Part shown: piece by piece, positions 2,787 to 51,536 of the stretch
How positions within the stretch are numbered: the stretch's first letter is position 1
Layout of the letters: every line of letters begins with the position of its first letter
Assembly: GCA_016873895.1 (NCBI GenBank)
Contig: VGVV01000002.1
Location: forward strand, 100,188-164,187
DNA from: Ignavibacteria bacterium
Lineage (GTDB): Bacteria; Bacteroidota; Ignavibacteria; Kapaibacteriales; Kapaibacteriaceae
Direction of reading: 5' to 3'
DNA: 64,000 nt
Program-made: the position numbers and the translations under genes
Notes under the pieces: generated by a model
The model's database searches: none
What the model saw: only the letters and a program-made list of their open reading frames with translations
What the model was told of the DNA's origin: nothing

Positions 2787-2860
2787 GCGCCCATAGCTCA
2801 GTTGGATAGAGCAGCAGCCTTCTAAGCTGCGGGCCGCAGGTTCGAATCCTGCTGGGCGCG
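2787..2860 (+). tRNA. tRNA-Arg (anticodon TCT)
   Basis: The 74-nt sequence folds as a cloverleaf: acceptor GCGCCCA/TGGGCGC, D-arm GCTC-AGTTGGATA-GAGC, anticodon stem GCAGC/GCTGC with loop CTTCTAA (anticodon TCT), T-arm GCAGG-TTCGAATC-CTGC. CCA is not encoded. Confidence 0.85.
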
Positions 2861-4213: not shown

Positions 4214-4312
4214 ACGGCCAAGTCCCGTGCGATTGTGTCAGTCCCAACTCCGCCAGGTCCGGAAGGAAGCAACGGTCAGCTCGTACACAATGCGCCACGG
4301 TCAACTTGGCCT
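4214..4312 (+). ncRNA. ffs: Signal recognition particle RNA (small 4.5S type)
   Basis: Contains the universally conserved domain-IV motif CCAGGUCCGGAAGGAAGCAAC. A terminal helix (GGCCAAGU...ACUUGGCC) closes it and is followed by a CUCUUUUUUU terminator tail. Confidence 0.75.
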
Positions 4313-4322
4313 CTTTTTTTAG

Positions 4323-5918
4323 ATGCTACGCAGAATCCTCATTAACGCCACTTCGTCTCACCTTCGAATTGCAATTACCGAAGATGGCAAGTTGGTTGAG
4401 CTGTTCACCGAATCGCCAGATACTGAGCACCATGTTGGGAATATCTACCTCGGTAGGGTAACGCGCGTTGTTCAGGGTATGAATGCTGCCTTTGTCAATA
4501 TTGGACTTGAGCAGGATGGGTTTTTACATTTCAGCGATGTCGATTCAACAATGGAAGAGGACGCATCAGATGATGATGAAGATGAACGTCCTGGATCTAC
4601 CGAGGTACAATCTGCAAGCATAGCGCTGCGTACCTCAAAGGTTGAATCGCGAAAGAAAAAGCCAACATTCTCTACAAAGCGTAGCGGCGAGATAACGATT
4701 AACATCCATGCAAAGCAGATGGTTGTGGTGCAGGTTACGCGCGATGCCTATCACCAGAAGGGTGTGCGCATCACGACAAAGGTTGGTCTAACGGGACGTA
4801 ACGTTGTCCTACTGCCGTTTGAAAGTAGCATCGGAATCTCTCGAAAAATCTATCAAACAAAAGAGCGCAAACGCCTACGTGCAATTGCTAAGTCAATCAT
4901 ACCAGAAGGTATGGGTTGTATCATCCGAACGGCTGCCGCTGGCTTGCCCGAGGAAGACGTGGCACGTGACTTTCAGACGCTGGTGCGAGACTGGCAAGAG
5001 ATCGAACGTGATGTGCGATCGGCCACAGAACCCATGCTTCTCCATCAAGAAGCAGGCATGACGCACAGCGTGATACGCGATCTGATGAAGGATGATGTGG
5101 CCCAGGTAGTGGTCGATGATCGCAAGGTCTACCGCGATCTCAAGGCATACATGGAGAAGACAGCGCCACACCTGTTAAGCCGACTTGAGTTCTTCGCCGA
5201 TACACGTCCGATGTTTGATGTATACGGGGTCGAGCGTGATGTACATCTGACACATTCACGTAAGGTACCACTGCCAAGTGGCGGACACTTGATACTTGAC
5301 CACACAGAGGCAATGGTGGTCGTGGATGTGAACTCTGGTCGTGCTTCAAACGAACGCACGCAGGAGGCCAACGCTGTTAAGACCAATTTCGAAGCTCTCA
5401 AAGAGGTAGCTCGGCAGATGCGTCTGCGTGATATTGGTGGAATGGTTCTGATCGATTTTATCGATATGCAGCAGGAAGACAACCGCCGAAGACTTATCAC
5501 AGAAATGAAGAAGGAAACTTCGCGAGATCGCGCGAAAGTTGTGGTGTACCCTCTTACCCAGCTCGGCATCCTCCAGGTTACGCGTCAACGAATTCGCCAG
5601 AGTATGGCCGAACGTACGAGCGAAGAATGTCCGTTCTGTCTTGGCACAGGTAAGGTACTCTCTGCAGCCAGTGTTGTAAGCGACATTGACCGCTGGTTGC
5701 GCAAGTTTAGAGCCGGAACCTGGGCCATGCGGGTTACGATTGCTACGCACCCCTACATCGTACATTATATCGAGCGTAACAAGCAACAGACACTACGAAA
5801 GTGGCTTCGGTCGTATTTTCTGCGTGTTCGTCTCAAGGAAGACGATTCCATCGAAGCGGGTGAGTTCCGATGCTTCGTTCCTGGGTCGGCGAAAGACATC
5901 ACACGACAGTATCAGTAA
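4323..5918 (+). CDS. Ribonuclease E/G family endoribonuclease (RNase G-like, 531 aa)
   Basis: N-terminal S1 domain (GNIYLGRVTRVVQGMNAAFVNIG) and the Rne/Rng catalytic core (DFIDM, LTQLG). It contains an acidic low-complexity insert (EEDASDDDEDE). Confidence 0.85.
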   Translation: MLRRILINATSSHLRIAITEDGKLVELFTESPDTEHHVGNIYLGRVTRVVQGMNAAFVNIGLEQDGFLHFSDVDSTMEEDASDDDEDERPGSTEVQSASIALRTSKVESRKKKPTFSTKRSGEITINIHAKQMVVVQVTRDAYHQKGVRITTKVGLTGRNVVLLPFESSIGISRKIYQTKERKRLRAIAKSIIPEGMGCIIRTAAAGLPEEDVARDFQTLVRDWQEIERDVRSATEPMLLHQEAGMTHSVIRDLMKDDVAQVVVDDRKVYRDLKAYMEKTAPHLLSRLEFFADTRPMFDVYGVERDVHLTHSRKVPLPSGGHLILDHTEAMVVVDVNSGRASNERTQEANAVKTNFEALKEVARQMRLRDIGGMVLIDFIDMQQEDNRRRLITEMKKETSRDRAKVVVYPLTQLGILQVTRQRIRQSMAERTSEECPFCLGTGKVLSAASVVSDIDRWLRKFRAGTWAMRVTIATHPYIVHYIERNKQQTLRKWLRSYFLRVRLKEDDSIEAGEFRCFVPGSAKDITRQYQ

Positions 5919-7093
5919 TGACCGATCTTCAGAACGCCTCCGTTACCATCCTCGGCTCTACCGGTTCGATAGGTACCCAAGCACTCGATATTCTCGAGCG
6001 CTCTGGAAAGGGGCAGGCATTACGGTGGATTACATGCAACACGAAGTGGCAGCTGCTTGCTGAGCAGGTAGAAAAGTTCTCGCCAAATGGCGTAGCCATT
6101 CGCGAAGAGCAAGCCTGGCGCGAATTCAAGGACGCAATGCCACGGTATACTGGCAGAGTTCTTTGCGGTGATGATGGAATTTGCGAGGCTGCAGCCGATT
6201 CAGAAAATCGAGTTGTCCTGTCAGCCATGGTGGGTTTCAGCGGCGTGCTTCCAACTTTGGCAGCAATCAAAGCCGGACATACCATTGGCCTTGCGAACAA
6301 GGAATCGCTTGTTAGCGCTGGCTCGATATTGATGCCTGCCGTTGATACCTATGGTGCTAAACTTCTGGCCGTTGACTCAGAACACAGCGCGATTCTGCAG
6401 TGTGTTGTAGGCGAGCGCAGGGATGATCTCGAGAAGGTAATCATCACCGCCTCGGGTGGCCCCTTCCGCACCTATACACACGAACAACTGCAACATGTGA
6501 CTGCCGCACAGGCACTGAAACACCCCAATTGGGACATGGGTGCTAAGATCACGATTGATTCGGCTACGCTGATGAACAAGGGGTTTGAGGTTATCGAGGC
6601 TTTTTGGCTCTTCGGACTTCGTGCAGACCAGATTGACGTTGTGATTCATCCACAATCGATCATCCATTCGATGGTGCAGTTTGTTGACGGATCGGTTAAA
6701 GCGCAAATGGGCGTTCCTACGATGTTGGTTCCAATCCAGTATGCGCTTACGTACCCGCGGAGAACTCCGCTCGACATACCACGCATGGATCTTGCCTCGA
6801 TGGGGCAACTCACGTTTGAGTCGCCAGATACAGAGAGGTTCCCATGTCTTGCCCTCGCGTATGAAGTGATGCGCCAAGGGGGCACGTCAGGAGCTGCTGT
6901 GAACGCTGCAAACGAGATTGCTGTTGAAGCGTTTTTGCAGGGTCGTTTGCGTTTTCGTGATATCCCTGCAACGATTGAGCACGTGCTTCATCACATGGAA
7001 CACGTCACTCATCCGTCATTAGCCGACATCGTGAGCATTGATGCAGAATCACGAAGGATTGCTCACGACTTTGCACATCGACATCAACTCTAA
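5918..7093 (+). CDS. dxr: 1-deoxy-D-xylulose 5-phosphate reductoisomerase
   Basis: ILGSTGSIGTQALDI NADPH-binding motif and full-length DXR similarity. The start at MTDLQ overlaps the RNase G stop as TAATG. Confidence 0.9.
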   Translation: MTDLQNASVTILGSTGSIGTQALDILERSGKGQALRWITCNTKWQLLAEQVEKFSPNGVAIREEQAWREFKDAMPRYTGRVLCGDDGICEAAADSENRVVLSAMVGFSGVLPTLAAIKAGHTIGLANKESLVSAGSILMPAVDTYGAKLLAVDSEHSAILQCVVGERRDDLEKVIITASGGPFRTYTHEQLQHVTAAQALKHPNWDMGAKITIDSATLMNKGFEVIEAFWLFGLRADQIDVVIHPQSIIHSMVQFVDGSVKAQMGVPTMLVPIQYALTYPRRTPLDIPRMDLASMGQLTFESPDTERFPCLALAYEVMRQGGTSGAAVNAANEIAVEAFLQGRLRFRDIPATIEHVLHHMEHVTHPSLADIVSIDAESRRIAHDFAHRHQL

Positions 7094-7099
7094 AGATTT

Positions 7100-8473
7100 A
7101 TGGACATCTTCAATAACATACTCTCCTTCATCATCGTCATCGGCATTCTCGTCTTTGTGCACGAGCTCGGACACTTCTTGGCTGCACTCTGGACGGGTAT
7201 GCGGGCAGATGTGTTTGCCCTTGGCATGGGACCACGTGTACTTGGATGGAATAAGCTCAACGGTTTTACGTTCGGCAAGCTTTCCGAAGATGTGCAATCA
7301 CAGCTCGGTGTCCAAACGGACTACCGACTATGTGCTCTACCGATAGGCGGCTATGTGAAGATTCTCGGAATGGTTGATGAGTCGATGGACAACGAGTTCG
7401 CAACGCAGGCCCCCGAGCCATATGAGTTTCGATCCAAGGGTGCTCTTGCACGGGCATTCGTATTGTCTGCCGGCGTGATCATGAACCTGCTTCTAGCTAT
7501 TGCTTTTTTCTGGACAGTGCTGGTGGTTTACGGACGCGAGGATGTTGCCACAACCACGATTGGCTATGTTGAGCAGGGATCTCTCGCAGATTCACTTGGC
7601 TTCCGCGACGCGGATGTTATCACATCGGTAGACGGCGCAACATTTGGCGAATGGGGTAGCGTTACAGAGGCACTTATTAGTCTCGAGAAGACTGCTCCGA
7701 GGAACGTTATCGTCAGGAGAAATGGTACTCAAGTGCTCATCACGGTGCCATCCGAACGAGTTGTTACAGCAATTGCTGAGCAGCGAGATCTTGGATTCTA
7801 TCCCGAAGGCGTCTCCGTAAAGATTGCAGGCGTGATGAAACATTCACCCGCAGAGCGCGCCAAACTTGCCAATGGAGACATCGTACTAGAGGTAAATGGA
7901 GCACGCCTTGGAGCCGTTACTCAACTGCAGAAGGCCATAAAGGCTCGAGGTGGTTCATTAATCATTCTCACTGTGAAGCGCGGCGCTGAGACTCTGCCAA
8001 TTAGCGTAGATGTTCCGAAGAACGGTCCTATCGGTGTTCAGTTAACTGGAGACTTCGTTGGACGTCGGACAAAGGTGACGTATTCACCTGTGACTGCAAT
8101 CAACATGGCATGGTCGCGAACAGTTGCTACCATTGGTGCGTTTATTTCTTCGGTAGCACATGTTATTGAGGGTACACTCACTGTTAAGCAGACGTTTGGC
8201 GGGCCTATACGTATTGCTCAGATGGCAGGGGAGCAATCCTCCGCCGGACTCGATGCATTCCTGATCTTCATGGCCGGGCTCTCTGTATCTCTCGCGGTAA
8301 TCAATCTCCTGCCGCTGCCGGGTCTTGACGGTGGACACCTCATGTTTGTGCTCATAGAGTCTATCATTCGACGGGAAATCTCAACCGCTATTAAGATTCG
8401 CGTGCAGCAAGTTGGTATGGCGTTGTTGCTCTCACTAATGGCATACATCTTCTATCTCGATCTCACGCGATAA
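7100..8473 (+). CDS. rseP: RIP zinc metalloprotease RseP (site-2 protease) with PDZ domains
   Basis: HELGHFLAA HExxH motif in TM1, two PDZ-like segments, and the C-terminal LPLPGLDGG motif. Confidence 0.9.
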   Translation: MDIFNNILSFIIVIGILVFVHELGHFLAALWTGMRADVFALGMGPRVLGWNKLNGFTFGKLSEDVQSQLGVQTDYRLCALPIGGYVKILGMVDESMDNEFATQAPEPYEFRSKGALARAFVLSAGVIMNLLLAIAFFWTVLVVYGREDVATTTIGYVEQGSLADSLGFRDADVITSVDGATFGEWGSVTEALISLEKTAPRNVIVRRNGTQVLITVPSERVVTAIAEQRDLGFYPEGVSVKIAGVMKHSPAERAKLANGDIVLEVNGARLGAVTQLQKAIKARGGSLIILTVKRGAETLPISVDVPKNGPIGVQLTGDFVGRRTKVTYSPVTAINMAWSRTVATIGAFISSVAHVIEGTLTVKQTFGGPIRIAQMAGEQSSAGLDAFLIFMAGLSVSLAVINLLPLPGLDGGHLMFVLIESIIRREISTAIKIRVQQVGMALLLSLMAYIFYLDLTR

Positions 8474-9267: not shown

Positions 9268-10121
9268 AAGGTAAAACGCACATGACATCGCACATTAATG
9301 AAACGCTGCTCAGAGATATCGATGCACATGCCAAACGGCTACGTTTTCTCTACCGCATCAAGGGATTTGGCTACGAACGGGCTATTGAGTTGCCTCTTAT
9401 CGCAAGCCATATAACAGATTCGTTTAGTCAGCCCCTTCGCTATCTCGACATTGGTACCGGGCAATCGATTTTTCCATCCTGGGTTGCCAGCAAGTCCAAC
9501 TGGGATGTAACCTGTTTGGATAAGTTTAACTGGGTTGAAAAGCAGCACGAGTATGCCACAAAACTTGGGCTCGATGCGAAGCGCTTTCATGTTGTGCTTC
9601 AGGACTTTCTCGAAGCGGAGCTAGAGCCAGAATCATTTGATGTGATCACAAATATTTCTGTGATTGAACACTTTGAAGGGGGCTTGGATTCTGTTGCAAT
9701 GGAGAAAAGTGCCCGTCTTCTCAAGCCAGGTGGTAAGTACATACTCACGACTCCGCTGAATGAGGGATATGCACGCGACTGGTTCCTGCAGCAGGATGTC
9801 TATGGTGAGAAGTTTACCACCGAGCCTGTGTTCTTTCAGCGCCACTACGATGTTGAATCATTCAAGAAGTGCATCGTTGATGTGTCCGGGCTTGAAGAAG
9901 TTGCACGCACATACTTTGGCGACTATGACGTACCATTCTTCAACGATAAGATCGTTGAACAACATGGTATCAAGAAGATTGCCCGCACGTTGCGCCAAAT
10001 TGGCACCGTAGATCATGCCCTCAAGCATGGAAGTTATCGGGATGTTCCGGTGTCGATGAAGGACATGAAGATCTACACCTCTGCCGGTGTTTGTGTTGTG
10101 CTTACAAAGCCCAAGCGCTGA
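9264..10121 (+). CDS. Class I SAM-dependent methyltransferase
   Basis: SAM-binding motif LDIGTGQS and post-I motifs (DVITNISVIEHF). Overlaps the surE stop. Confidence 0.6.
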   Translation: MKGKTHMTSHINETLLRDIDAHAKRLRFLYRIKGFGYERAIELPLIASHITDSFSQPLRYLDIGTGQSIFPSWVASKSNWDVTCLDKFNWVEKQHEYATKLGLDAKRFHVVLQDFLEAELEPESFDVITNISVIEHFEGGLDSVAMEKSARLLKPGGKYILTTPLNEGYARDWFLQQDVYGEKFTTEPVFFQRHYDVESFKKCIVDVSGLEEVARTYFGDYDVPFFNDKIVEQHGIKKIARTLRQIGTVDHALKHGSYRDVPVSMKDMKIYTSAGVCVVLTKPKR

Positions 10122-11137
10122 TAGAGATGTATAAGCTGAGTAAGTGCTTGTGAGTATGGCTGCGTAGGCTCGGGCATGTTGCCAACGGCAACCTCTTCAA
10201 TGCAGACACTAATTGCACGGGCCAGATCGGAAGCATCCTCGTTGCGAAACGTCTTGCAGCCTGCCGGACGCAACACTGTGTCGGATGCGATCGTCCAGCG
10301 TCCCAGCTCCATGGCCTCTGTTACCGTAAGCGAGGGTCCACCTTCTGTTCGTGTTGGACGTATCACGATATGCGACTCCTTGACCAAAGGGGCCAGAGGT
10401 CCATTGAGATCACTCACCAAACAGACGCGTGCGTCGAGCTTGGCCGCTTTAACAATGCGATGATACAGCGCTTGATCGCGAACCCCGCCGATAGCAATGC
10501 AGACCCCGATTCGTTGATCTGTGACCTGCTGCAGTGCTTCGAGCAACACGTCGATACCATAAAGGTCTTTACCTTCAACAGACGTAACGGCTCCTGCATT
10601 TGCGAGGATTCTGATTGGTGCTGCTCGCCATTGCTCCGGTAGGGATGTGGGTAGCATGCCGTTCGATTCCCAGTTGCTCATTGGTAGGTTGGATGGGATA
10701 ACCTTGAGCCGCTTGTGGACTACACCAAGCTCGTTCTGCAGGTCGCGCGCGGCCTCATCGCTAATGGCAACAATGGCCTCTGCGCGCTCATAGGCCTTCC
10801 GCAAATCCCGAACAATGCCTGAATTCTTGAATTCACTTCTGTGGCGGAACGAATGCACTGTTACGATATACTTGGTGCCTAGCAAACGCCAGAGCTTACT
10901 ATACAAGAGCATCCAACGAAAGTTGCCCTCGTCCGTATGGTAGTGCACCGGAGTGCGAGTGAGAAGATGCCACGGGCGCCACAACGAGACGTGTTGCAGT
11001 CCCTCCGGCATGCCTCCCAGTGAGAGTCCGTGAACACTGATACCACGCCCTCGCAATGCCTCTAACAGTCGAACACAATGGATGGCCACGCCTCCAAAGG
11101 GAGGTGGAAAGGGGCCAAGAATGTGCATCGTTTTCAT
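10073..11137 (-). CDS. Glycosyltransferase family 4/group 1
   Basis: 354-aa protein with a GT-B fold pattern: N-terminal ILGPFPPPFGGVAIH and a C-terminal EGGPSLTVTEAMELG-type motif. Confidence 0.65.
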   Translation of the reverse strand: MKTMHILGPFPPPFGGVAIHCVRLLEALRGRGISVHGLSLGGMPEGLQHVSLWRPWHLLTRTPVHYHTDEGNFRWMLLYSKLWRLLGTKYIVTVHSFRHRSEFKNSGIVRDLRKAYERAEAIVAISDEAARDLQNELGVVHKRLKVIPSNLPMSNWESNGMLPTSLPEQWRAAPIRILANAGAVTSVEGKDLYGIDVLLEALQQVTDQRIGVCIAIGGVRDQALYHRIVKAAKLDARVCLVSDLNGPLAPLVKESHIVIRPTRTEGGPSLTVTEAMELGRWTIASDTVLRPAGCKTFRNEDASDLARAISVCIEEVAVGNMPEPTQPYSQALTQLIHLYQRLGFVSTTQTPAEV

Positions 11138-15671: not shown

Positions 15672-15701
15672 GAGTGTCGAATCTACGGAATGCGCTAGTT
15701 T

Positions 15702-23889: not shown

Positions 23890-23913
23890 GGGGCTGGGCA
23901 GTATTTTTGATGT

Positions 23914-30102: not shown

Positions 30103-31361
30103 TAGTCTTCGGTAGGATGGCGTTCAATAACGGCTCCGAGAGCTCCGAGCTTAGACTCTAATTTTTCGTAGCCTCGATCCAAATGATAGACCCGTAAGAT
30201 CTCTGTTGTACCCTGAGCAACTAGTCCAGCCATGACTAAGCTTGCACTGGCACGCAGATCACTCGACATAACTGTTGCGCCAGTTAGTTTGTTATTGCCC
30301 TTGACCACGCAGTATCCTTCTCCTGTTTCGATATGCGCACCAAGTCGCTGAAGTTCTGGAACATATCCAAAGCGAGTAGGGTAGATAGTGTCTCGAATAC
30401 GCGAAGCCCCCTGAGCTGTGAGCATGTATGCAGCCCACTGGGCCTGTGTATCAGTAGGGAATCCAGGATAAATTGAGGCCGTTATGTCCACCGCCTCTGG
30501 TGTTTCCAACATGCGGACACGAATTGTATCATCAGACACATCCACGAGTGCGCCGGTATCAATCAGTTTTTGTGTTACCGCATCCAGATGTTCCGGTATA
30601 ACATGCGTGAGTGTTACGTCGCCACGCGTCATTGCTGCAACAAGCATAAACGTTGCAGCCTCTATCCGGTCGGGGATTGTTGATGCTACCACAGGATTGA
30701 GAGAATCTACACCTTCGATTTCTAATGTTGTCGTGCCTATGCCGGAAATCTTTGCACCCATCTGCTCAAGCATCAGCGCTAGGTTGGTAACCTCTGGTTC
30801 AATGGCAACGTTTGTAAGAGTTGTTTGCCCCCTGGCTAAAACCGCAGCTGATAAAATATTGACCGATGCGCCAACCGAGGATATGTCGAAGTGAAAGTGT
30901 GCGCCCTGTAATCGCGGACACTTGGCAATGATGTAGCCTCCTGTAACGTCGATCTCGGCACCAAGTTTTTCTAGCCCCTTGAGGTGCAGATCAACAGGAC
31001 GCGGACCAAAGTTGCAGCCTCCAGGCAGTGATACTCGTGCCTCTCCGTAGCGGGCAATCAGTGGCCCTAGAACGTAGATCGAAGCACGCATCTGCTTGAC
31101 GTGTTCGTACGGGGCTTCGTAACTCGTAATACTCGTTGAATCCAGCGTTAACATGTCACCTTCGAGAGACATCCCAACCCCCATGCTGCCGAGCAGACGA
31201 CTCATCGTTCCGAGATCTCGGTTGTTGGGTGTGTTCTTGAGTGTAAGTGCACCATTGGTAAGAAGGCATGCAGGCATAAGCGCGAGCGATGCATTCTTCG
31301 CGCCTGAAATGGCAACACTGCCGGTGAGGCGAACGCCTCCGTGTACGATAAACTTATCCAT
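30099..31361 (-). CDS. murA: UDP-N-acetylglucosamine 1-carboxyvinyltransferase
   Basis: MDKFIVHGGVRLTGSVAISGAKNASL N-terminus and full-length EPT-fold conservation. Confidence 0.9.
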   Translation of the reverse strand: MDKFIVHGGVRLTGSVAISGAKNASLALMPACLLTNGALTLKNTPNNRDLGTMSRLLGSMGVGMSLEGDMLTLDSTSITSYEAPYEHVKQMRASIYVLGPLIARYGEARVSLPGGCNFGPRPVDLHLKGLEKLGAEIDVTGGYIIAKCPRLQGAHFHFDISSVGASVNILSAAVLARGQTTLTNVAIEPEVTNLALMLEQMGAKISGIGTTTLEIEGVDSLNPVVASTIPDRIEAATFMLVAAMTRGDVTLTHVIPEHLDAVTQKLIDTGALVDVSDDTIRVRMLETPEAVDITASIYPGFPTDTQAQWAAYMLTAQGASRIRDTIYPTRFGYVPELQRLGAHIETGEGYCVVKGNNKLTGATVMSSDLRASASLVMAGLVAQGTTEILRVYHLDRGYEKLESKLGALGAVIERHPTEDY

Positions 31362-31411
31362 ACGCAAAGATAGGGGGCGGAAGTGCGGATTCGCGGCATC
31401 TTGTATATTCG

Positions 31412-31500
31412 TACACCGTTAGAGGTGCCTCGATAACAGAGGCTGAGATCACACTCTTGGAACCTGATACAGATAATGCTGGCGAAGGAAAACGGATCTA
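31412..31500 (+). promoter_or_regulatory. TPP (THI-box) riboswitch in the 5' leader of the TonB-dependent receptor gene
   Basis: GGTGCC...GCTGAGA...ACTCTTGGAACCTGATACAGATAATGCTGGCGAAGGAA matches the THI-element consensus (GGGGUGCC / GCUGAGA / GAACCUGAUC..GAUAAUGCCAGCG.AGGGA). Confidence 0.75.
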
Positions 31501-31548
31501 CCTTTCTAACGGACGTTTACAGCATGTTTCATTACAGAAGGTACGTCC

Positions 31549-33642
31549 ATGCACAAAGTTCTATTCTTCGTTTGCCAGACGCTTGTAGCAAGCTCCATCA
31601 CGTTGTATGCGGAATGCTTGAATGATAAAGACACGGCGTCCGTTCTACTGCCTAACATTGATGTTCGCCTGGTACGTGCAGACGATCATGCGCCAGTAAC
31701 TCATACCACAATCACGCCAGCTAAGCTGCGGATGCTTCATGTGGGACAAGACCCTCAGTACATCGTTGAAAGGGCGGTTCCGTCGATAGTGGCATTCTCG
31801 GAGTCGGGAACGGGGATGACGAATTATGGATCATTCCGATTGCGCGGAATGGACCAAACTCGGATAAACGTAACGATAGATGGTGCGCCCATAAACGACA
31901 TGATAGACCAAGGGGTGTTTTTTTCAAACATGACTGACCTATCCAGTGGTATGGCATCAATACAAGTGCAGCGTGGTGTGGGAATGAGCATGAATGGCAC
32001 TGCCTCTTATGCTGGATCTGTAAACTTCGAAACCAATTCCGGAGTGGGATTGCCATCAGCACACCTAGAGTTGGCGGCCGGTTCGTTTGATATGCGTAGG
32101 GCCAGCGCTATTGTGTCTACTGGTACATTACCAAGCGGTATACATGCGTTTGCACGGTTCACAAGCCTGGCCTCTGACGGCTATCGATTGAATACAGGTA
32201 CAGAAACGAATTCTTTGCTGTTCTCAGGTGGCTGGGCAGGCGGATCGGATGTGATTCGCGTAGTAGGAGTCTGGGGCAGATCTGCAAACCAACTGGGCTA
32301 TCTACCGGTGCCTGCCTCGATTGCTCGGAGTAGACCACCTACTAACCTAAACGACATAACCGACAATGACAACTTTGGCCAGCATCTGCTACAACTTCGC
32401 TATCAACGATCTCTAACGTCGGCTTCGGACATATCAGTGGCAGTATACTATGGTGGAGCAGGTGGGGACTACTTCGCTGGATTTCGTGACAGTTCGCAGA
32501 CGCTAACCCAGATCAATTACCCATTGCAGAATCGTCATCTTGGTGCAACAGCAAGCTTTGCTACATCGGGCCTAGTAGACAACGTCCGCCTCGAAGCCAA
32601 CATGCATGCCTACAGGTTCAGCAGGCGTAACTGGGAAACTGTGAGTCCTGAGAACAGAAGTCCGTATTACGACGATCAAACAACGAAGGACGAGCTCTCC
32701 CTGTCTGTTCGTGGAACCTATGATCTCGGCAACTGGCAATTGTATGTAGACCTTCAGGCCCGGGGAGTTGGAATGAACTTCGTTCAGGATGTGCCAAACA
32801 TGCTGTCTGCTCGCAGTCTTCCAGAACATTCGTGGCTCTTTATCAATCCACGTGTTGGTGCGCGCTACGCCCTTGACAATGCCTCGGAGCTCTACCTATC
32901 GTTTGGTCAGACTGGACGTGAGCCAACGCGGTTTGACCTGCTCGGTTCAACGCAGATCAATGATGCCAATGTGAGTGTACTTCAACGTCCGGGCACGGTA
33001 CGGGCAGAGTACGCAATGGATCTCGAGGCGGGCTACCGTGTTCGTAGTGAGAAGGGGCGTCTAGCTGCGAACTTCTTCCTGATGCGATTTCAAGACGAGA
33101 TAGCTCCTATCGGACCCTACATAGAGCAGCAGTTTGTGCAGTTGCGAAAGAATGTTGCCCGCAGCCGCCGCATTGGGGTTGAGATCGAAGGCGCATACAA
33201 CCTACTCTCGAACCTGAGCATCGAAGGAAATGTTACGTGGATGTCGGCACGTGTTGATGAATATGTTCCCGAGAATATCATACCTGCCGTCGTATACACC
33301 AATGTCTTTCCAGTTCTTACACCTAACATCCTGGGCAATGTTGTGATGCGTTACTCACCTGTGCGATTAGTGAGTCTAGATCTCGTAGCCCGCGGTATAA
33401 CGAGATCCTTCACAGATATATCCAACGATGCATCACTTACTCTACCGGGATTTGTGCAGGTTGATGCACGCCTGTGGGTAAACATCTCCAGTGCTCTCCG
33501 AATAGGTATGCATGGCAACAACATGACCAATGCCTTCGTTGTTACCAATGGGGCTTCGGCCTTTGTTGACGGACGGGCAGAGTCTACATATTTCGTTCAG
33601 GCAGGACGCAATTTTATGGTTACTGCAACCGTGGATTTTTGA
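31549..33642 (+). CDS. TonB-dependent outer-membrane receptor
   Basis: Signal peptide, plug domain (FRLRGMDQTRINVTIDGAPINDM), and a long beta-barrel ending in a terminal aromatic residue (...TVDF). Confidence 0.85.
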   Translation: MHKVLFFVCQTLVASSITLYAECLNDKDTASVLLPNIDVRLVRADDHAPVTHTTITPAKLRMLHVGQDPQYIVERAVPSIVAFSESGTGMTNYGSFRLRGMDQTRINVTIDGAPINDMIDQGVFFSNMTDLSSGMASIQVQRGVGMSMNGTASYAGSVNFETNSGVGLPSAHLELAAGSFDMRRASAIVSTGTLPSGIHAFARFTSLASDGYRLNTGTETNSLLFSGGWAGGSDVIRVVGVWGRSANQLGYLPVPASIARSRPPTNLNDITDNDNFGQHLLQLRYQRSLTSASDISVAVYYGGAGGDYFAGFRDSSQTLTQINYPLQNRHLGATASFATSGLVDNVRLEANMHAYRFSRRNWETVSPENRSPYYDDQTTKDELSLSVRGTYDLGNWQLYVDLQARGVGMNFVQDVPNMLSARSLPEHSWLFINPRVGARYALDNASELYLSFGQTGREPTRFDLLGSTQINDANVSVLQRPGTVRAEYAMDLEAGYRVRSEKGRLAANFFLMRFQDEIAPIGPYIEQQFVQLRKNVARSRRIGVEIEGAYNLLSNLSIEGNVTWMSARVDEYVPENIIPAVVYTNVFPVLTPNILGNVVMRYSPVRLVSLDLVARGITRSFTDISNDASLTLPGFVQVDARLWVNISSALRIGMHGNNMTNAFVVTNGASAFVDGRAESTYFVQAGRNFMVTATVDF

Positions 33643-33684
33643 CGTAGTATCACCTGACCGCATGCATGCCATATATTCGCAGCC

Positions 33685-34185
33685 ATGAACAAACACGTTA
33701 TCAAAGTCACAAAACAATGTGCGCACATTGGTGACAATGGAAGATGCAAGAAGCTAACAATGTATTCACATCCATTCTGTGGTGCTCACACCAAGGTGCA
33801 CTTTGGTGTATCAGTTCGAAAGAGCACGATAGAGCTGGCAGGGAAGGGGCTTTTTGCTGAACGCGTGTTCGACAAAGACGAACGAATCGTAGAGTACTAT
33901 GGCGAGAAGCTGACTACGGACCAATATGAACGTAGATACCGCAAAGACCCACTCGGTTCATATGGTATACAGCTATCGGTGAGACATGTGATTGACGCGT
34001 GCCGCACAGATGCAGGTGTAGCGCGATATGCCTGTGACTACCATGGTTCGGGCAAGAAGGCTAATGCGGAGTACATCAATTTTGGCGGACGTATTTGGAT
34101 CGTTGCTAAAAAACGTATCCGTGCTGGTGAAGAGATCTTCACTGATTACGGCGATGATATGCATCGCGCGCTCGGATTACTCTAA
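33685..34185 (+). CDS. SET-domain protein (putative lysine methyltransferase) with a Cys/His-rich N-terminal segment
   Basis: GKGLFAERVF (GxG), RYACDYHGS (NHSC-like) and EEIFTDYG (ELxxDYG) SET motifs. N-terminal CAHIGDNGRCKKLTMYSHPFCGAH. Confidence 0.5.
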   Translation: MNKHVIKVTKQCAHIGDNGRCKKLTMYSHPFCGAHTKVHFGVSVRKSTIELAGKGLFAERVFDKDERIVEYYGEKLTTDQYERRYRKDPLGSYGIQLSVRHVIDACRTDAGVARYACDYHGSGKKANAEYINFGGRIWIVAKKRIRAGEEIFTDYGDDMHRALGLL

Positions 34186-34224: not shown

Positions 34225-34957
34225 GTGCGGTTTGCAATTGGCAAGCATATCGTGTCGGGGAAGGACGAGACTGTCCGGCTGTTCCAAAACCTGATCCTTG
34301 AGTACTTCTCGCATATACATCCCGCTACACCTGTGATTGTGTATCTGCCGATCATAAGCGTGGTTGGATGGCGATCAGCAGAGGTATTGGCACCTTCCTC
34401 GTTTATCATTGCGGCTTGTGCCGGTATTGTGCTCTGGACGCTAGCCGAGTATGTGATTCACAGGGTGGTCTTTCATGCTCAGCCCCGGTCACGCCTGGGT
34501 AGAAAGGTTCATTTTCTCGTCCATGGGATCCACCATGCCTACCCACGTGATTCTACGCGTCTTGTTATGCCCCCTCTGGTAAGCCTCCCGTTAGCGGCAG
34601 CCTTCTTTGTGCTATTCAAGCTGGCATTTGGAAATTTCTACCAACCTATGTGGATTGGTTTTATACTTTTTGTATTTGGCCTATGATGGCATTTATTATG
34701 TTGTCCATCATGTAAACCTAACATCGCCGCTCGGTCGGTACCTGAAGATGCACCATATGCATCATCACTTTGTGAGCCCCGACCGTGCATTTGGAGTAAG
34801 TAAGCCGTTCTGGGACCGTATTTTTGCCTCGCTACCCGAGCCCACCACTCGTGTGTCGGTTAGACGCCGTAAATTAAAGCAGTTCATACAAAGGCAAACG
34901 TCGAATGGCACTCAGCAAAACCGATATCCTAAACGCCGCTCAGGCAGTTACAAGTGA
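34225..34957 (+). pseudogene. Fatty acid hydroxylase/sterol desaturase superfamily membrane protein, disrupted by a frameshift near 34665-34683
   Basis: Two overlapping ORFs (34225-34686 and 34607-34957). The first carries the His box HGIHHAYP and the second HHVN...HHMHHHF. They switch frame at a TTTTT run (ttttatactttttgtatttggcctatga). Confidence 0.6.
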
Positions 34958-35411
34958 ACTCGAGTGTGTAGAACACCACGGTGATCTTACCCTTGTTGTA
35001 AAACTCGCTGACCTGATTGAGGTGCTCTCGGAGCTCAAAGAAAATCCTAACACACAGTTCAATCAGCTTGTTGACATGACTGTGATCGATTGGGCTAAGC
35101 CAGGCGAAAGATTTGATGTTGTGTACTTCCTTTACTCGATAGCGCATGCGACCCATGTGCGAGTAAAAGCACACGTCCGTGAAGACAGGCCGCATGTTCC
35201 CACATCGGTAGATGTTTGGGAATCAGCTAACTGGTATGAGCGCGAAGCATACGACATGTATGGAATCATCTTTGATGGGCACCCAGACCTGCGTCGCTTC
35301 TTTATGCCGGAAGATTTCATGGATACCGACGGAACCCCGCTATATCCACTGCGTAAGGATTTCCCTCTCATGGGAATTCCAGGATCTCTGCCGCTGCCAT
35401 TGAAAGACTAA
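34905..35411 (+). CDS. nuoC: NADH-quinone oxidoreductase subunit C-like (30-kDa subunit), not adjacent to other nuo genes
   Basis: DVWESANWYEREAYDMYGIIFDGHPDLRRFFMPEDF...YPLRKDFPL is the conserved NuoC core. 168 aa. Confidence 0.7.
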   Translation: MALSKTDILNAAQAVTSELECVEHHGDLTLVVKLADLIEVLSELKENPNTQFNQLVDMTVIDWAKPGERFDVVYFLYSIAHATHVRVKAHVREDRPHVPTSVDVWESANWYEREAYDMYGIIFDGHPDLRRFFMPEDFMDTDGTPLYPLRKDFPLMGIPGSLPLPLKD

Positions 35412-51482: not shown

Positions 51483-51536
51483 GGGGCAAAACTACACACG
51501 GTATCTGGCATGGTCTCAGGGAGTTATACTTGTCGT

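Follow-up and report, generated by a model that had tools for sequence, protein, structure and literature searches.

The closest described relative of the locus analysed here is OMthi (BT2390; Omr1 in comparative genomics) of Bacteroides thetaiotaomicron, a stand-alone TonB-dependent outer-membrane receptor (TBDR) that supports growth on thiamine and whose TPP riboswitch abuts the start codon (PMC5613172). The OMthi riboswitch acts on translation and leaves the mRNA level unchanged; TPP riboswitches of B. uniformis transport operons reduce mRNA levels, and short aptamer-to-start distances tend to accompany translational control (bioRxiv 10.1101/867226). A TPP-TBDR locus has been reported for Caldithrix abyssi (PMC5317091), and an omr1 receptor gene with a nearby TPP riboswitch for Flavobacteriales and SAR86, with ThiY and YkoF listed as pyrimidine-vitamer transport components (PMC10881298).

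The window, a stretch of 64,000 nt from an Ignavibacteria bacterium (GCA_016873895.1, contig VGVV01000002.1, positions 100,188-164,187, forward strand), carries a locus of the same arrangement. As in OMthi, a TPP aptamer lies in the leader of a stand-alone TBDR gene that is split from pnuT-tnr3, a precedent (PMC5613172) that bears out the preliminary description in calling the arrangement known from Bacteroidota. In both, the riboswitch adjoins the start codon; translational control was shown in B. thetaiotaomicron and is predicted for the window. OMthi is a relative by arrangement, its host being a gut Bacteroides and that of the window an uncultured Kapaibacterium on the Ignavibacteria/Chlorobi side of FCB; the window TBDR is also shorter (697 aa), without the N-terminal CarboxypepD_reg-like domain of many Bacteroidota orthologues. 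In Caldithrix abyssi, from an FCB lineage outside Bacteroidota, the locus Cabys_3975-3977 likewise has a TPP aptamer ahead of its TBDR, but neither partner of that locus is present in the window, where the spacer is 41 nt. The known pairing of TPP riboswitch and outer-membrane receptor is hereby extended to Kapaibacteria, with the current understanding of thiamine regulation unchanged. As a whole, the locus is in our judgement quite probably a translational TPP switch acting on the receptor of thiamine or a thiamine vitamer alone, followed by genes for a SET-domain protein, a fatty-acid-hydroxylase-family (FAH) protein and NuoC as a separate leaderless unit.

Aptamer and receptor

The THI-box claimed earlier in the leader of the TBDR gene was confirmed by covariance scoring, with a match to Rfam RF00059 at 71.9 bits (E 3.5e-12; gathering cut-off 54.3 bits) that fully covers model positions 1-105 and is the single TPP match in the whole 64 kb. 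A covariance model built in this analysis (R1) gave 91 bits for the same aptamer. In the cmscan alignment CUGAGA (J3-2), ACCUGAU and the P4/P5 helix are present and the shortening is confined to the variable P3 tip; these columns are invariant across 20 aptamers. The P1 closing helix and the pyrophosphate helix of GCUGGCG/AGGGA type are present as well. Judged by its sequence, the element is a genuine TPP riboswitch, for which TPP binding and switching are predicted. Its coordinates are given in Table 1, together with those of the neighbouring features.

Table 1. Features of the riboswitch-receptor locus and adjoining genes (window positions)
Feature	Position	Strand	Basis or remark
Start of divergent MurA (EPSP_synthase family)	31359..31372	-	-7 box TATCTTTG 31365-31372, then CGT, ATG 31361-31359
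Predicted sigma-A -7 promoter box TATATTCG of riboswitch-TBDR transcript	31404..31411	+	motif, position, conservation
TPP riboswitch aptamer (THI element)	31411..31507	+	RF00059 match; P1 = 31416-31420 paired with 31491-31495
Expression platform	31500..31548	+	alignment of 24 leaders, constrained folds
Anti-SD ACCUUUCU	31500-31507	+	platform element
Repeat of P1 3' strand, CUAACGG	31506-31512	+	can pair with P1/P2 5' bases 31416-31423
Hairpin GGACGU / ACGUCC adjoining AUG	31511-31516 / 31543-31548	+
SD AGAAGG	31537-31542	+
TBDR, 697 aa, signal peptide	31549..33642	+	Pfam; Plug + 22-strand barrel family
Predicted -7 promoter box TATATTCG of SET	33672..33679	+	5 nt before ATG
SET-domain protein, 166 aa, predicted first gene of separate SET-FAH-NuoC unit	33685..34185	+	Pfam SET, 50 bits
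FAH membrane protein gene, broken	34225..34957	+	two Pfam half-matches, different frames
NuoC (complex I 30-kDa subunit family), isolated from other nuo genes	34905..35411	+	Complex1_30kDa 152 bits; TIGR01961 132 bits, above cut-off

The receptor combines the signal peptide, plug and barrel of TonB-dependent receptors, with a hydrophobic N-terminus (MHKVLFFVCQTLVASSITLYA), a Plug domain (PF07715, residues 48-156, 37 bits) and a TonB_dep_Rec_b-barrel domain (PF00593, residues 237-658, 73 bits). Matches to PDB sequences were remote and weak and solely to TBDRs, e.g. YncD and the PQQ transporter, and comparison with NCBIfam returned no specific family, every match lying far under cut-off. Homologues numbered 1835, the named ones being Kapabacteria and Ignavibacteria; the best 120 of the 1835 include no Bacteroides entries. 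Orthologous loci were compared in 80 cases, from Kapaibacteria/Ignavibacteria, Cytophagales, Flavobacteriales, Balneolaceae and Saprospiraceae, and in 79 of these the aptamer lies upstream of the TBDR on the same strand, so that the riboswitch in the 5' leader is conserved over the orthologous loci. In Bacteroidota the orthologous TBDR is associated with thiamine transport and salvage genes (PnuT-family with AAA_28, NMT1/THI5/ThiY-like, YkoF). This association does not extend to the window itself, where the ORFs of 150 aa or more include no other thiamine gene and neither pnuT nor tnr3 lies within the 64 kb; the Pfam content of the downstream ORFs likewise upholds the earlier statement that PnuT and thiamine pyrophosphokinase are missing behind the receptor. 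From regulation and context, the TBDR is predicted to be an Omr1/OMthi-like receptor for thiamine or a vitamer. As one TBDR orthogroup retains the aptamer in at least five FCB lineages, it should serve as a reliable metagenome marker for B1/vitamer scavenging.

Promoter and expression platform

Given the position of the -7 box preceding the riboswitch, transcription should begin at about 31416, where P1 has its first base. Both window boxes agree with the published position of the Bacteroidota -7 box (-12 to -5; PMC9723704), and no -33 TTTG element is evident at either. A TAnnTT[TC]G box stands at a fixed distance from CCGTTAG in all 35 Kapaibacteria-type loci with the window-type platform. 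Scanning the window for sigma-70 promoters yielded 8 sites against 6.7 expected, the Bacteroidota -7 box being the informative motif instead: TAnnTT[TC]G occurs 4-8 nt before seven gene starts of the window other than SET, against about 0.08 expected by chance, an enrichment of about 100-fold at leaderless spacing. Exact copies of TATATTCG in the 64 kb are limited to two, before the riboswitch and before SET. A special operator shared by these two was considered and rejected in favour of a general promoter box, because the degenerate form precedes the seven unrelated genes and the box in front of the riboswitch varies among relatives.

The order of repeat, anti-SD, hairpin and SD is common to 24 aligned leaders. 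In the alternative helix between the repeat and the 5' strand of P1/P2, five of the eight pairs are paired in 24/24 leaders and a sixth in 23/24, the changes being A-to-G (G.U) only. The hairpin before the AUG is 94% paired, with an invariant core (GGACG:CGUCC) and hence no covariation support; both-side changes in the anti-SD:SD helix were seen in 13 cells of the alignment. The leaders further contain a conserved loop motif, (A/G)UGUUUCA, and purine-rich boxes (GGAG, GAGG or GAAGG) 6-9 nt before the AUG. Folding under constraint gave near-equal energies for the two states (P1 imposed, -31.4 kcal/mol; alternative helix imposed, -33.3 kcal/mol), and the probability that bases 31543-31548 are unpaired was 0.01-0.05 in the former and 0.26-0.98 in the latter. 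The SD core is unpaired in the predicted nested fold, and its pairing with the anti-SD would require a pseudoknot. In seven other Kapaibacteria-type loci (L008, L018, L019, L021, L023, L034, L047) the aptamer match runs at its 3' end into the first in-frame AUG; the L018 group represents a second platform type, with a GAGG Shine-Dalgarno inside the P1 3' strand, which is the simplest translational design.

These elements suggest the following course of events. A sigma-A promoter with a Bacteroidota-type -7 box would start a transcript whose first bases belong to P1. At high intracellular TPP, the aptamer would lock P1 and thereby free the downstream CUAACGG/anti-SD segment; the bases immediately before the start codon would be shut in the GGACG:CGUCC hairpin, probably also by anti-SD:SD pairing, and translation of the TBDR would be blocked. 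At low TPP, the 5' strand of P1/P2 (CCGUUAGA) would pair with the downstream repeat (UCUAACGG), the hairpin would open, and the receptor, the product of a single-gene unit, would be made and take up thiamine, or one of its vitamers, through the outer membrane. We infer that control is translational and concerns the TBDR alone, as such a platform points to an action on the TBDR start codon only.

The predicted design resembles the thiM type of E. coli, in which an anti-SD just 3' of the aptamer pairs either with the SD region (off) or with 5' sequences of the aptamer (on) and the ligand-stabilised P1 decides between the two. Unlike there, the switching element in the window repeats the P1 3' strand to the letter (AACGG, positions 31491-31495 and 31508-31512), and an extra hairpin abuts the AUG with its 3' arm. 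The combination of P1 3' strand repeat and AUG-adjacent hairpin offers a concrete, testable design.

Extent of the regulated unit and receptor substrate

Directly before the SET ATG, TAnnTT[TC]G was found in 30 of the 31 loci listed, L027 alone being without it, and in 27 of them, the window included, exactly as TATATTCG. Where 491 nt are inserted upstream of SET (L018), the box stays with SET. Its distance of only 5 nt from the ATG implies a leaderless or 1-nt-leader mRNA, and the SET protein is full-length from residue 1 in relatives. At motif level, a putative promoter is thus conserved within the row of genes, and SET, FAH and NuoC probably constitute a separate leaderless transcription unit. 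With a promoter of their own they would be neighbours, and not part of the thiamine switch. In the 42-nt gap between TBDR and SET no convincing terminator was found (-2.1 kcal/mol vs -3.5 +/- 2.1 for shuffles), and on folding the gap in 25 loci hairpins clearly above shuffles appeared in few (L001, L042). A conserved terminator at this place is rejected on these grounds, and insulation is likewise unproven; as the window gap has no significant hairpin or terminator, some read-through from TBDR into SET is possible. Of the two features that the preliminary description expected of decoupled genes, an independent promoter is supported for SET, while a terminator was not found in the gap.

The synteny comparison of TPP-riboswitch-TBDR loci, proposed earlier, speaks against a fixed linkage with the downstream genes. 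Two loci, L031 and L032, have the whole SET-FAH-NuoC block turned round, so that it converges with the TBDR and is joined to a STAS gene, the stop of which overlaps the SET ATG as ATGA; in L018, L027 and L033 insertions part the block from the TBDR or break it up internally; and four Kapaibacterium loci (L024, L025, L028, L030) and all Bacteroidota loci have the TPP-TBDR pair without these neighbours. Linkage and orientation are therefore not conserved wherever the genes occur. The surroundings consist of conserved housekeeping genes (MurA, DnaB, Ffh, S16 and others), and SET-FAH-NuoC stands behind the TBDR because this core-genome stretch keeps its gene order across Kapaibacteria. The SET -7 box, the rearrangements of the block, the translational platform and the housekeeping synteny together disfavour a riboswitch-regulated downstream set, so that of the two options left standing by the preliminary description, this set and a stand-alone importer of thiamine or a vitamer, the evidence favours the importer. 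Where leaderless promoters are common, tight and conserved adjacency to a riboswitch does not imply co-regulation.

Two other readings of the regulation were weighed. That the riboswitch acts mainly on transcription, through premature termination or Rho, and not on translation initiation, appears unlikely. FCB bacteria often do without classical SD use, so the SD-based model may be over-read; against this, the purine-rich boxes do occur 6-9 nt before the AUG in the leaders. The lowered mRNA in B. uniformis transport operons would be a parallel, but the trend for short aptamer-to-start distances favours translational control (both bioRxiv 10.1101/867226). The 41 nt from the 3' end of the aptamer to the TBDR start, moreover, contain no stem with a U-run, and no intrinsic terminator was found in the leader (3 weak sites in the window scan vs 5.0 expected); conserved complementary segments bracket SD and AUG, and the second platform type has its SD inside P1 and its AUG a few nt from the aptamer. 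Very unlikely, in our view, is a four-gene operon, in which the transcript from 31416 would read through the TBDR into SET, FAH and nuoC and make them thiamine-regulated, either directly or by Rho-dependent polarity while the TBDR is left untranslated. To our knowledge, none of these three genes has a link to thiamine, which counts against such an operon, as do the conserved, leaderless-type SET promoter box, the inverted and STAS-fused block of L031/L032 and the 491 nt of L018. It would draw on the short gap without convincing terminator and on the same orientation and tight spacing in about 30 loci, but the orthologous TBDR of Bacteroidota is never accompanied by SET, FAH or NuoC. Riboswitches that act on translation can also provoke mRNA decay or Rho-dependent termination, yet that of OMthi leaves mRNA levels unchanged (bioRxiv 10.1101/867226).

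As to the substrate, import of a precursor or breakdown product of thiamine (pyrimidines of the HMP, AmMP or FAMP type) in place of intact thiamine is a possibility that we regard as doubtful. The gene directly after the TBDR in Bacteroidota orthologous loci is NMT1/THI5/ThiY-like, and in L048 and L050 (Owenweeksia, Cryomorphaceae) the NMT1-like protein bears a lipoprotein signal peptide, which would suit a pyrimidine-binding protein of the periplasm or cell surface; that of Cytophagales, however, lacks a signal peptide and could be an HMP-P synthase of THI5 type in the cytoplasm, so that its adjacency to the TBDR may merely reflect regulon clustering. The Balneolaceae locus has YkoF, an HMP/thiamine-binding protein, and YkoF and ThiY count among the pyrimidine-vitamer transport components (PMC10881298), but genes for PnuT (thiamine) also occur in Bacteroidota orthologous loci, OMthi supports growth on thiamine (PMC5613172), and the Kapaibacterium locus itself holds no hint of the substrate. 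A more speculative proposal, to which we give little credence, is that thiamine status modulates the SET methyltransferase and the isolated NuoC by read-through or Rho polarity atop the SET promoter; a second is that the TBDR orthogroup is a receptor of pyrimidine vitamers (HMP/AmMP/FAMP) and not of thiamine. If thiamine did modulate SET and NuoC, Kapaibacteria would tie protein methylation, or the assembly of a respiratory complex, to their vitamin B1 supply. A stand-alone receptor for thiamine or a vitamer remains the preferred reading.

Hydroxylase frameshift and flanking genes

The genes behind the receptor are those named earlier, a SET-domain protein, a frameshifted membrane hydroxylase and an orphan NuoC, as seen from their Pfam domains and the shared insertion in FAH. 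The single FA_hydroxylase domain is distributed over two frames, with its N-half in ORF 34225-34686 and its C-half in ORF 34607-34957, the frame being broken by a 1-nt insertion at CTTTTTG (34666-34672). Programmed +1 frameshifting at CUU-UUU-G was considered but not adopted, since neither a slow A-site codon nor a stimulator is present and the gene is absent in L029 and degraded in L011. Misassembly does not account for the frameshift, which is real: the same insertion is shared by four other independent assemblies of the species (99.2-99.3% nt identity, about 30 SNPs over 4.2 kb). FAH is one continuous frame in more distant relatives and likely a pseudogene in the window species. No other complex I genes were found among the window ORFs of at least 150 aa; in relatives NuoC overlaps the end of FAH and always travels with SET-FAH. 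On the other side of the riboswitch, public gene calls for the divergent MurA give 420 aa, consistent with an ATG at 31361-31359.

The TPP aptamer and its receptor gene

The whole window was scanned with Rfam, and the TPP family RF00059 matched at full length (71.9 bits against a gathering cut-off of 54.3, E 3.5e-12), confirming the THI-box that the preliminary description had placed in the leader of the TonB-dependent receptor (TBDR) gene. The aptamer, shortened only at the variable tip of helix P3, is one of three matches above gathering score. ORF and domain annotation likewise matched the three downstream genes named there, for a SET-domain protein, a frameshifted FA-hydroxylase (FAH) and a NuoC-like protein; the usual thiamine partners are missing as described, and neither a thiamine gene nor a second nuo gene was found among the ORFs of at least 150 aa in the 64-kb window. 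The remainder encodes housekeeping functions (S1, RNase G, Dxr, RseP, SurE, LptF/G, Ffh, S16, RF3, Sua5) and a T9SS-sorted protein, consistent with a genome of the FCB group.

Features of the window and of loci with several TPP aptamers (L061, L072, L079; Cytophagales)
Feature	Position	Strand	Remarks
tRNA	2787-2860		Rfam 73.4 bits; upstream of RNase G gene
Small bacterial SRP RNA	4216-4314		Rfam 62.2 bits; upstream of RNase G gene
MurA-type enolpyruvyl transferase	upstream of TPP aptamer-TBDR	divergent	
TPP aptamer	31411-31507	+	
TBDR	31549-33642	+	697 aa; Plug and TonB_dep_Rec_b-barrel domains; start 41 nt 3' of aptamer
SET-domain protein	33685-34185	+	166 aa
FAH halves	34225-34686 and 34607-34957	+	overlapping ORFs, half of FA_hydroxylase domain each
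NuoC	34905-35411	+	168 aa
STAS protein	3' of NuoC	-	
GT9 heptosyltransferase, GFO/IDH oxidoreductase, DnaB	3' of NuoC		
-7 boxes 4-8 nt before start codons	12023-12030, 15678-15685, 31365-31372, 51487-51494	-	
-7 boxes 4-8 nt before start codons	17436-17443, 23902-23909, 33672-33679	+	
L061 aptamers	6464-6558, 7579-7678		
L072 aptamers	1346-1440, 6837-6932, 7525-7622		
L079 aptamers	5239-5334, 6484-6578, 7515-7611		

A homologue search with the TBDR returned 1835 sequences, the named close ones being from Candidatus Kapabacteria/Kapaibacterium and Ignavibacteria MAGs (50-54% identity) and others reaching 71-99%. Orthologous loci were collected by a profile scan with one genome per species, yielding 80 loci (76-39% identity) from Kapaibacterium/Ignavibacteria-type MAGs, Cytophagales (Catalinimonas, Marivirga, Mongoliitalea, Cyclobacteriaceae), Flavobacteriales (Owenweeksia, Cryomorphaceae, Schleiferiaceae, Crocinitomicaceae), Balneolaceae and Saprospiraceae. 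Of 16 loci tested at the Rfam gathering threshold, 14 have a TPP aptamer ahead of the TBDR, the aptamers of L048 and L050 scoring below it; with covariance models A2 and R1, built from the aptamers of orthologous loci, an aptamer was found upstream on the TBDR strand in 79 of the 80, the exception being L004, whose contig starts inside the TBDR gene. Because of this upstream placement, the orthogroup is, as judged from genomic context, tied to the thiamine regulon across its whole range.

Expression platform and reach of the riboswitch

No terminator, defined as a stem followed by a U-run, was found in the 41-nt spacer between aptamer and TBDR. Alignment of 24 Kapaibacteria-type leaders gave one common layout: the aptamer with invariant CCGUUAGAGGUGC, then the P1 3' strand AACGG, a pyrimidine-rich anti-Shine-Dalgarno (anti-SD; CCUUUCU, CCCUCAU or CUCCU), a repeat of that P1 strand (UAACGG, or UAGCGG/UGGCGG), GGACG, a loop of about 20 nt, a purine-rich SD (AGAAGG, AUGAGG or AGGAG), CGUCC and the AUG. 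An alternative helix, 31416-31423:31505-31512, has its inner five pairs in all 24 leaders and the sixth in 23, with substitutions from A to G opposite U only, so that pairing is kept. The GGACG:CGUCC hairpin, 94% paired, lacks covariation support because it is nearly invariant; the anti-SD:SD helix has two positions altered on both sides (13 cells in total), with a covariation score equalled or exceeded in just 4 of 500 shuffles. In predicted folds, positions 31543-31548 are closed when P1 is enforced (P(unpaired) 0.01-0.05) and open when the alternative helix is enforced, at energies of -31.4 and -33.3 kcal/mol, respectively, a gap of only about 2 kcal/mol. Within the platform hairpin, the loop motif (A/G)UGUUUCA(U/C), window 31524-31532, is conserved in most of the 24 leaders.

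A second, simpler design is present in seven other Kapaibacteria-type loci (L008, L018, L019, L021, L023, L034, L047), where the aptamer match shares its 3'-terminal bases with the AUG; L047 and the L018 group (L018, L019, L021, L023, L034) have a GAGG Shine-Dalgarno within the P1 3' strand. Both designs most likely act on initiation of TBDR translation. This agrees with Bacteroides thetaiotaomicron, where the riboswitches of the stand-alone OMthi (BT2390) and of pnuT directly adjoin the start codon and repress translation with mRNA levels unchanged (PMC5613172; bioRxiv 10.1101/867226); transport genes typically have a short distance between aptamer and start codon (bioRxiv 10.1101/867226).

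The preliminary description had left two options, a stand-alone thiamine importer or a riboswitch regulating an unusual downstream gene set. A TBDR-SET-FAH-NuoC operon could be suggested by the gene order, kept from divergent MurA through TBDR, SET, FAH, NuoC, opposed STAS and GT9 to DnaB in about 35 Kapaibacteria-type loci, and by the 42-nt TBDR-SET gap of the window, in which no convincing terminator was found. However, SET has its own conserved predicted -7 box (the Bacteroidota sigma-A promoter element); the SET-FAH-NuoC block as a whole lies inverted, convergent with TBDR, in L031 and L032, is interrupted by about 2.9 kb between SET and FAH in L027 and L033, and is without FAH in L029; the TPP-TBDR pair occurs with none of these genes in L024, L025, L028 and L030 (Kapaibacterium) and in all Bacteroidota loci; and a translational riboswitch as such leaves downstream cistrons untouched. 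Of the terminator and independent promoter proposed as signs of decoupling, a promoter is predicted and no convincing terminator was found, so that read-through into SET, or Rho-type polarity with an untranslated TBDR, may occur. The preliminary interpretation is partly supported: the stand-alone importer is upheld, and the riboswitch-regulated gene set is not.

Substrate and relation to known systems

Thiamine is the default inference for the TBDR substrate. Import of a pyrimidine vitamer by the orthogroup is a live alternative, favoured by the gene neighbourhoods: an NMT1/THI5/ThiY-like gene lies immediately 3' of the TBDR in Bacteroidota loci, encoding a lipoprotein in Owenweeksia and Cryomorphaceae, and YkoF is among the neighbours in Balneolaceae. 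The lipoprotein signal peptides of these gene products (genes at L048 10000-11070 and L050 10101-11162) hint that this TBDR group has a pyrimidine-binding partner at the surface or in the periplasm; the Cytophagales counterpart has none (L038, L039, L041). Further neighbours in Bacteroidota are a PnuT-family transporter and an AAA_28 kinase-like gene, and in Marivirga a DUF6687 gene grouped with the thiamine-related flanks. In Cytophagales loci, two or three distinct TPP aptamers lie a few kb apart at most, each ahead of a different thiamine gene (pnuT with AAA_28, NMT1/THI5-like, or TBDR); multiple aptamers also occur at L051, L064, L066, L070, L074 and L077.

Predictions of TPP-riboswitch-controlled TBDRs go back to the comparative genomics of Rodionov et al. 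2002, cited in PMC5317091, which also notes one in Caldithrix; there is genetic work in B. thetaiotaomicron (PMC5613172) and mechanistic work (bioRxiv 10.1101/867226), and omr1 is such a TBDR in marine Flavobacteriales and SAR86 (PMC10881298). In arrangement, the window receptor resembles B. thetaiotaomicron OMthi with its split locus. NCBIfam has no specific model for it, and a PDB sequence search returned only remote TBDRs. The pairing itself being known, what the window adds is a case from Kapaibacterium in which the receptor stands alone. In use, the by-products (leaderless -7-box promoters, FAH frameshift, isolated nuoC, tandem Cytophagales aptamers) may outweigh this main finding.

Predicted leaderless promoters, FAH and nuoC

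In the TBDR-SET gap, a strongly conserved TATATTCG(C) lies exactly 5 nt 5' of the SET ATG. A TAnnTT[TC]G box precedes SET in 30 of the 31 loci listed, exactly as TATATTCG in 27, and is kept in L018, one MAG, despite a 491-nt insertion (10070-10562) that separates it from the TBDR stop. By its sequence, this predicted promoter motif is a form of TAnnTTTG, the sigma-A -7 box of Bacteroidota. As this box occupies -12 to -5 in Flavobacterium psychrophilum (PMC9723704), the predicted TSS would be 1 nt 5' of the ATG and the SET mRNA essentially leaderless. The public gene call of SET (141 aa; L081 8212-8637, window 33760-34185) starts at an internal ATG, whereas all relatives conserve the 25 N-terminal residues encoded from 33685; it appears to be a mis-call of the kind typical for leaderless genes. 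In L031 and L032, SET has lost the box, and the stop codon of STAS and the start codon of SET share the sequence ATGA, in a co-directional STAS-SET-FAH-NuoC unit formed by inversion (L031 11247-12079, L032 11307-12139).

A box of the same class precedes the riboswitch (31404-31411, 5 nt before the first P1 base) and recurs in 35 loci with varying nn positions; MurA is likewise preceded by one. TAnnTT[TC]G occurs 44 times in the window, 8 times at 4-8 nt 5' of a gene start against about 0.08 by chance, an enrichment of about 100-fold. By this spacing, about one in six genes of the window looks leaderless; the share reported for Flavobacterium is about 5.5% (PMC9723704).

The FAH gene (34225-34957) carries a 1-nt insertion at CTTTTTG, 34666-34672. 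Since four other same-species assemblies from different samples also carry it (L081-L084, 99.2-99.3% identity), the frameshift is real and common to all five assemblies examined. In L011 the FAH gene is degraded as well, and in L029 it is absent. The nuoC gene, the only complex I gene in the 64 kb, overlaps the hydroxylase gene end, and this isolated position is kept across Kapaibacteria-type genomes.
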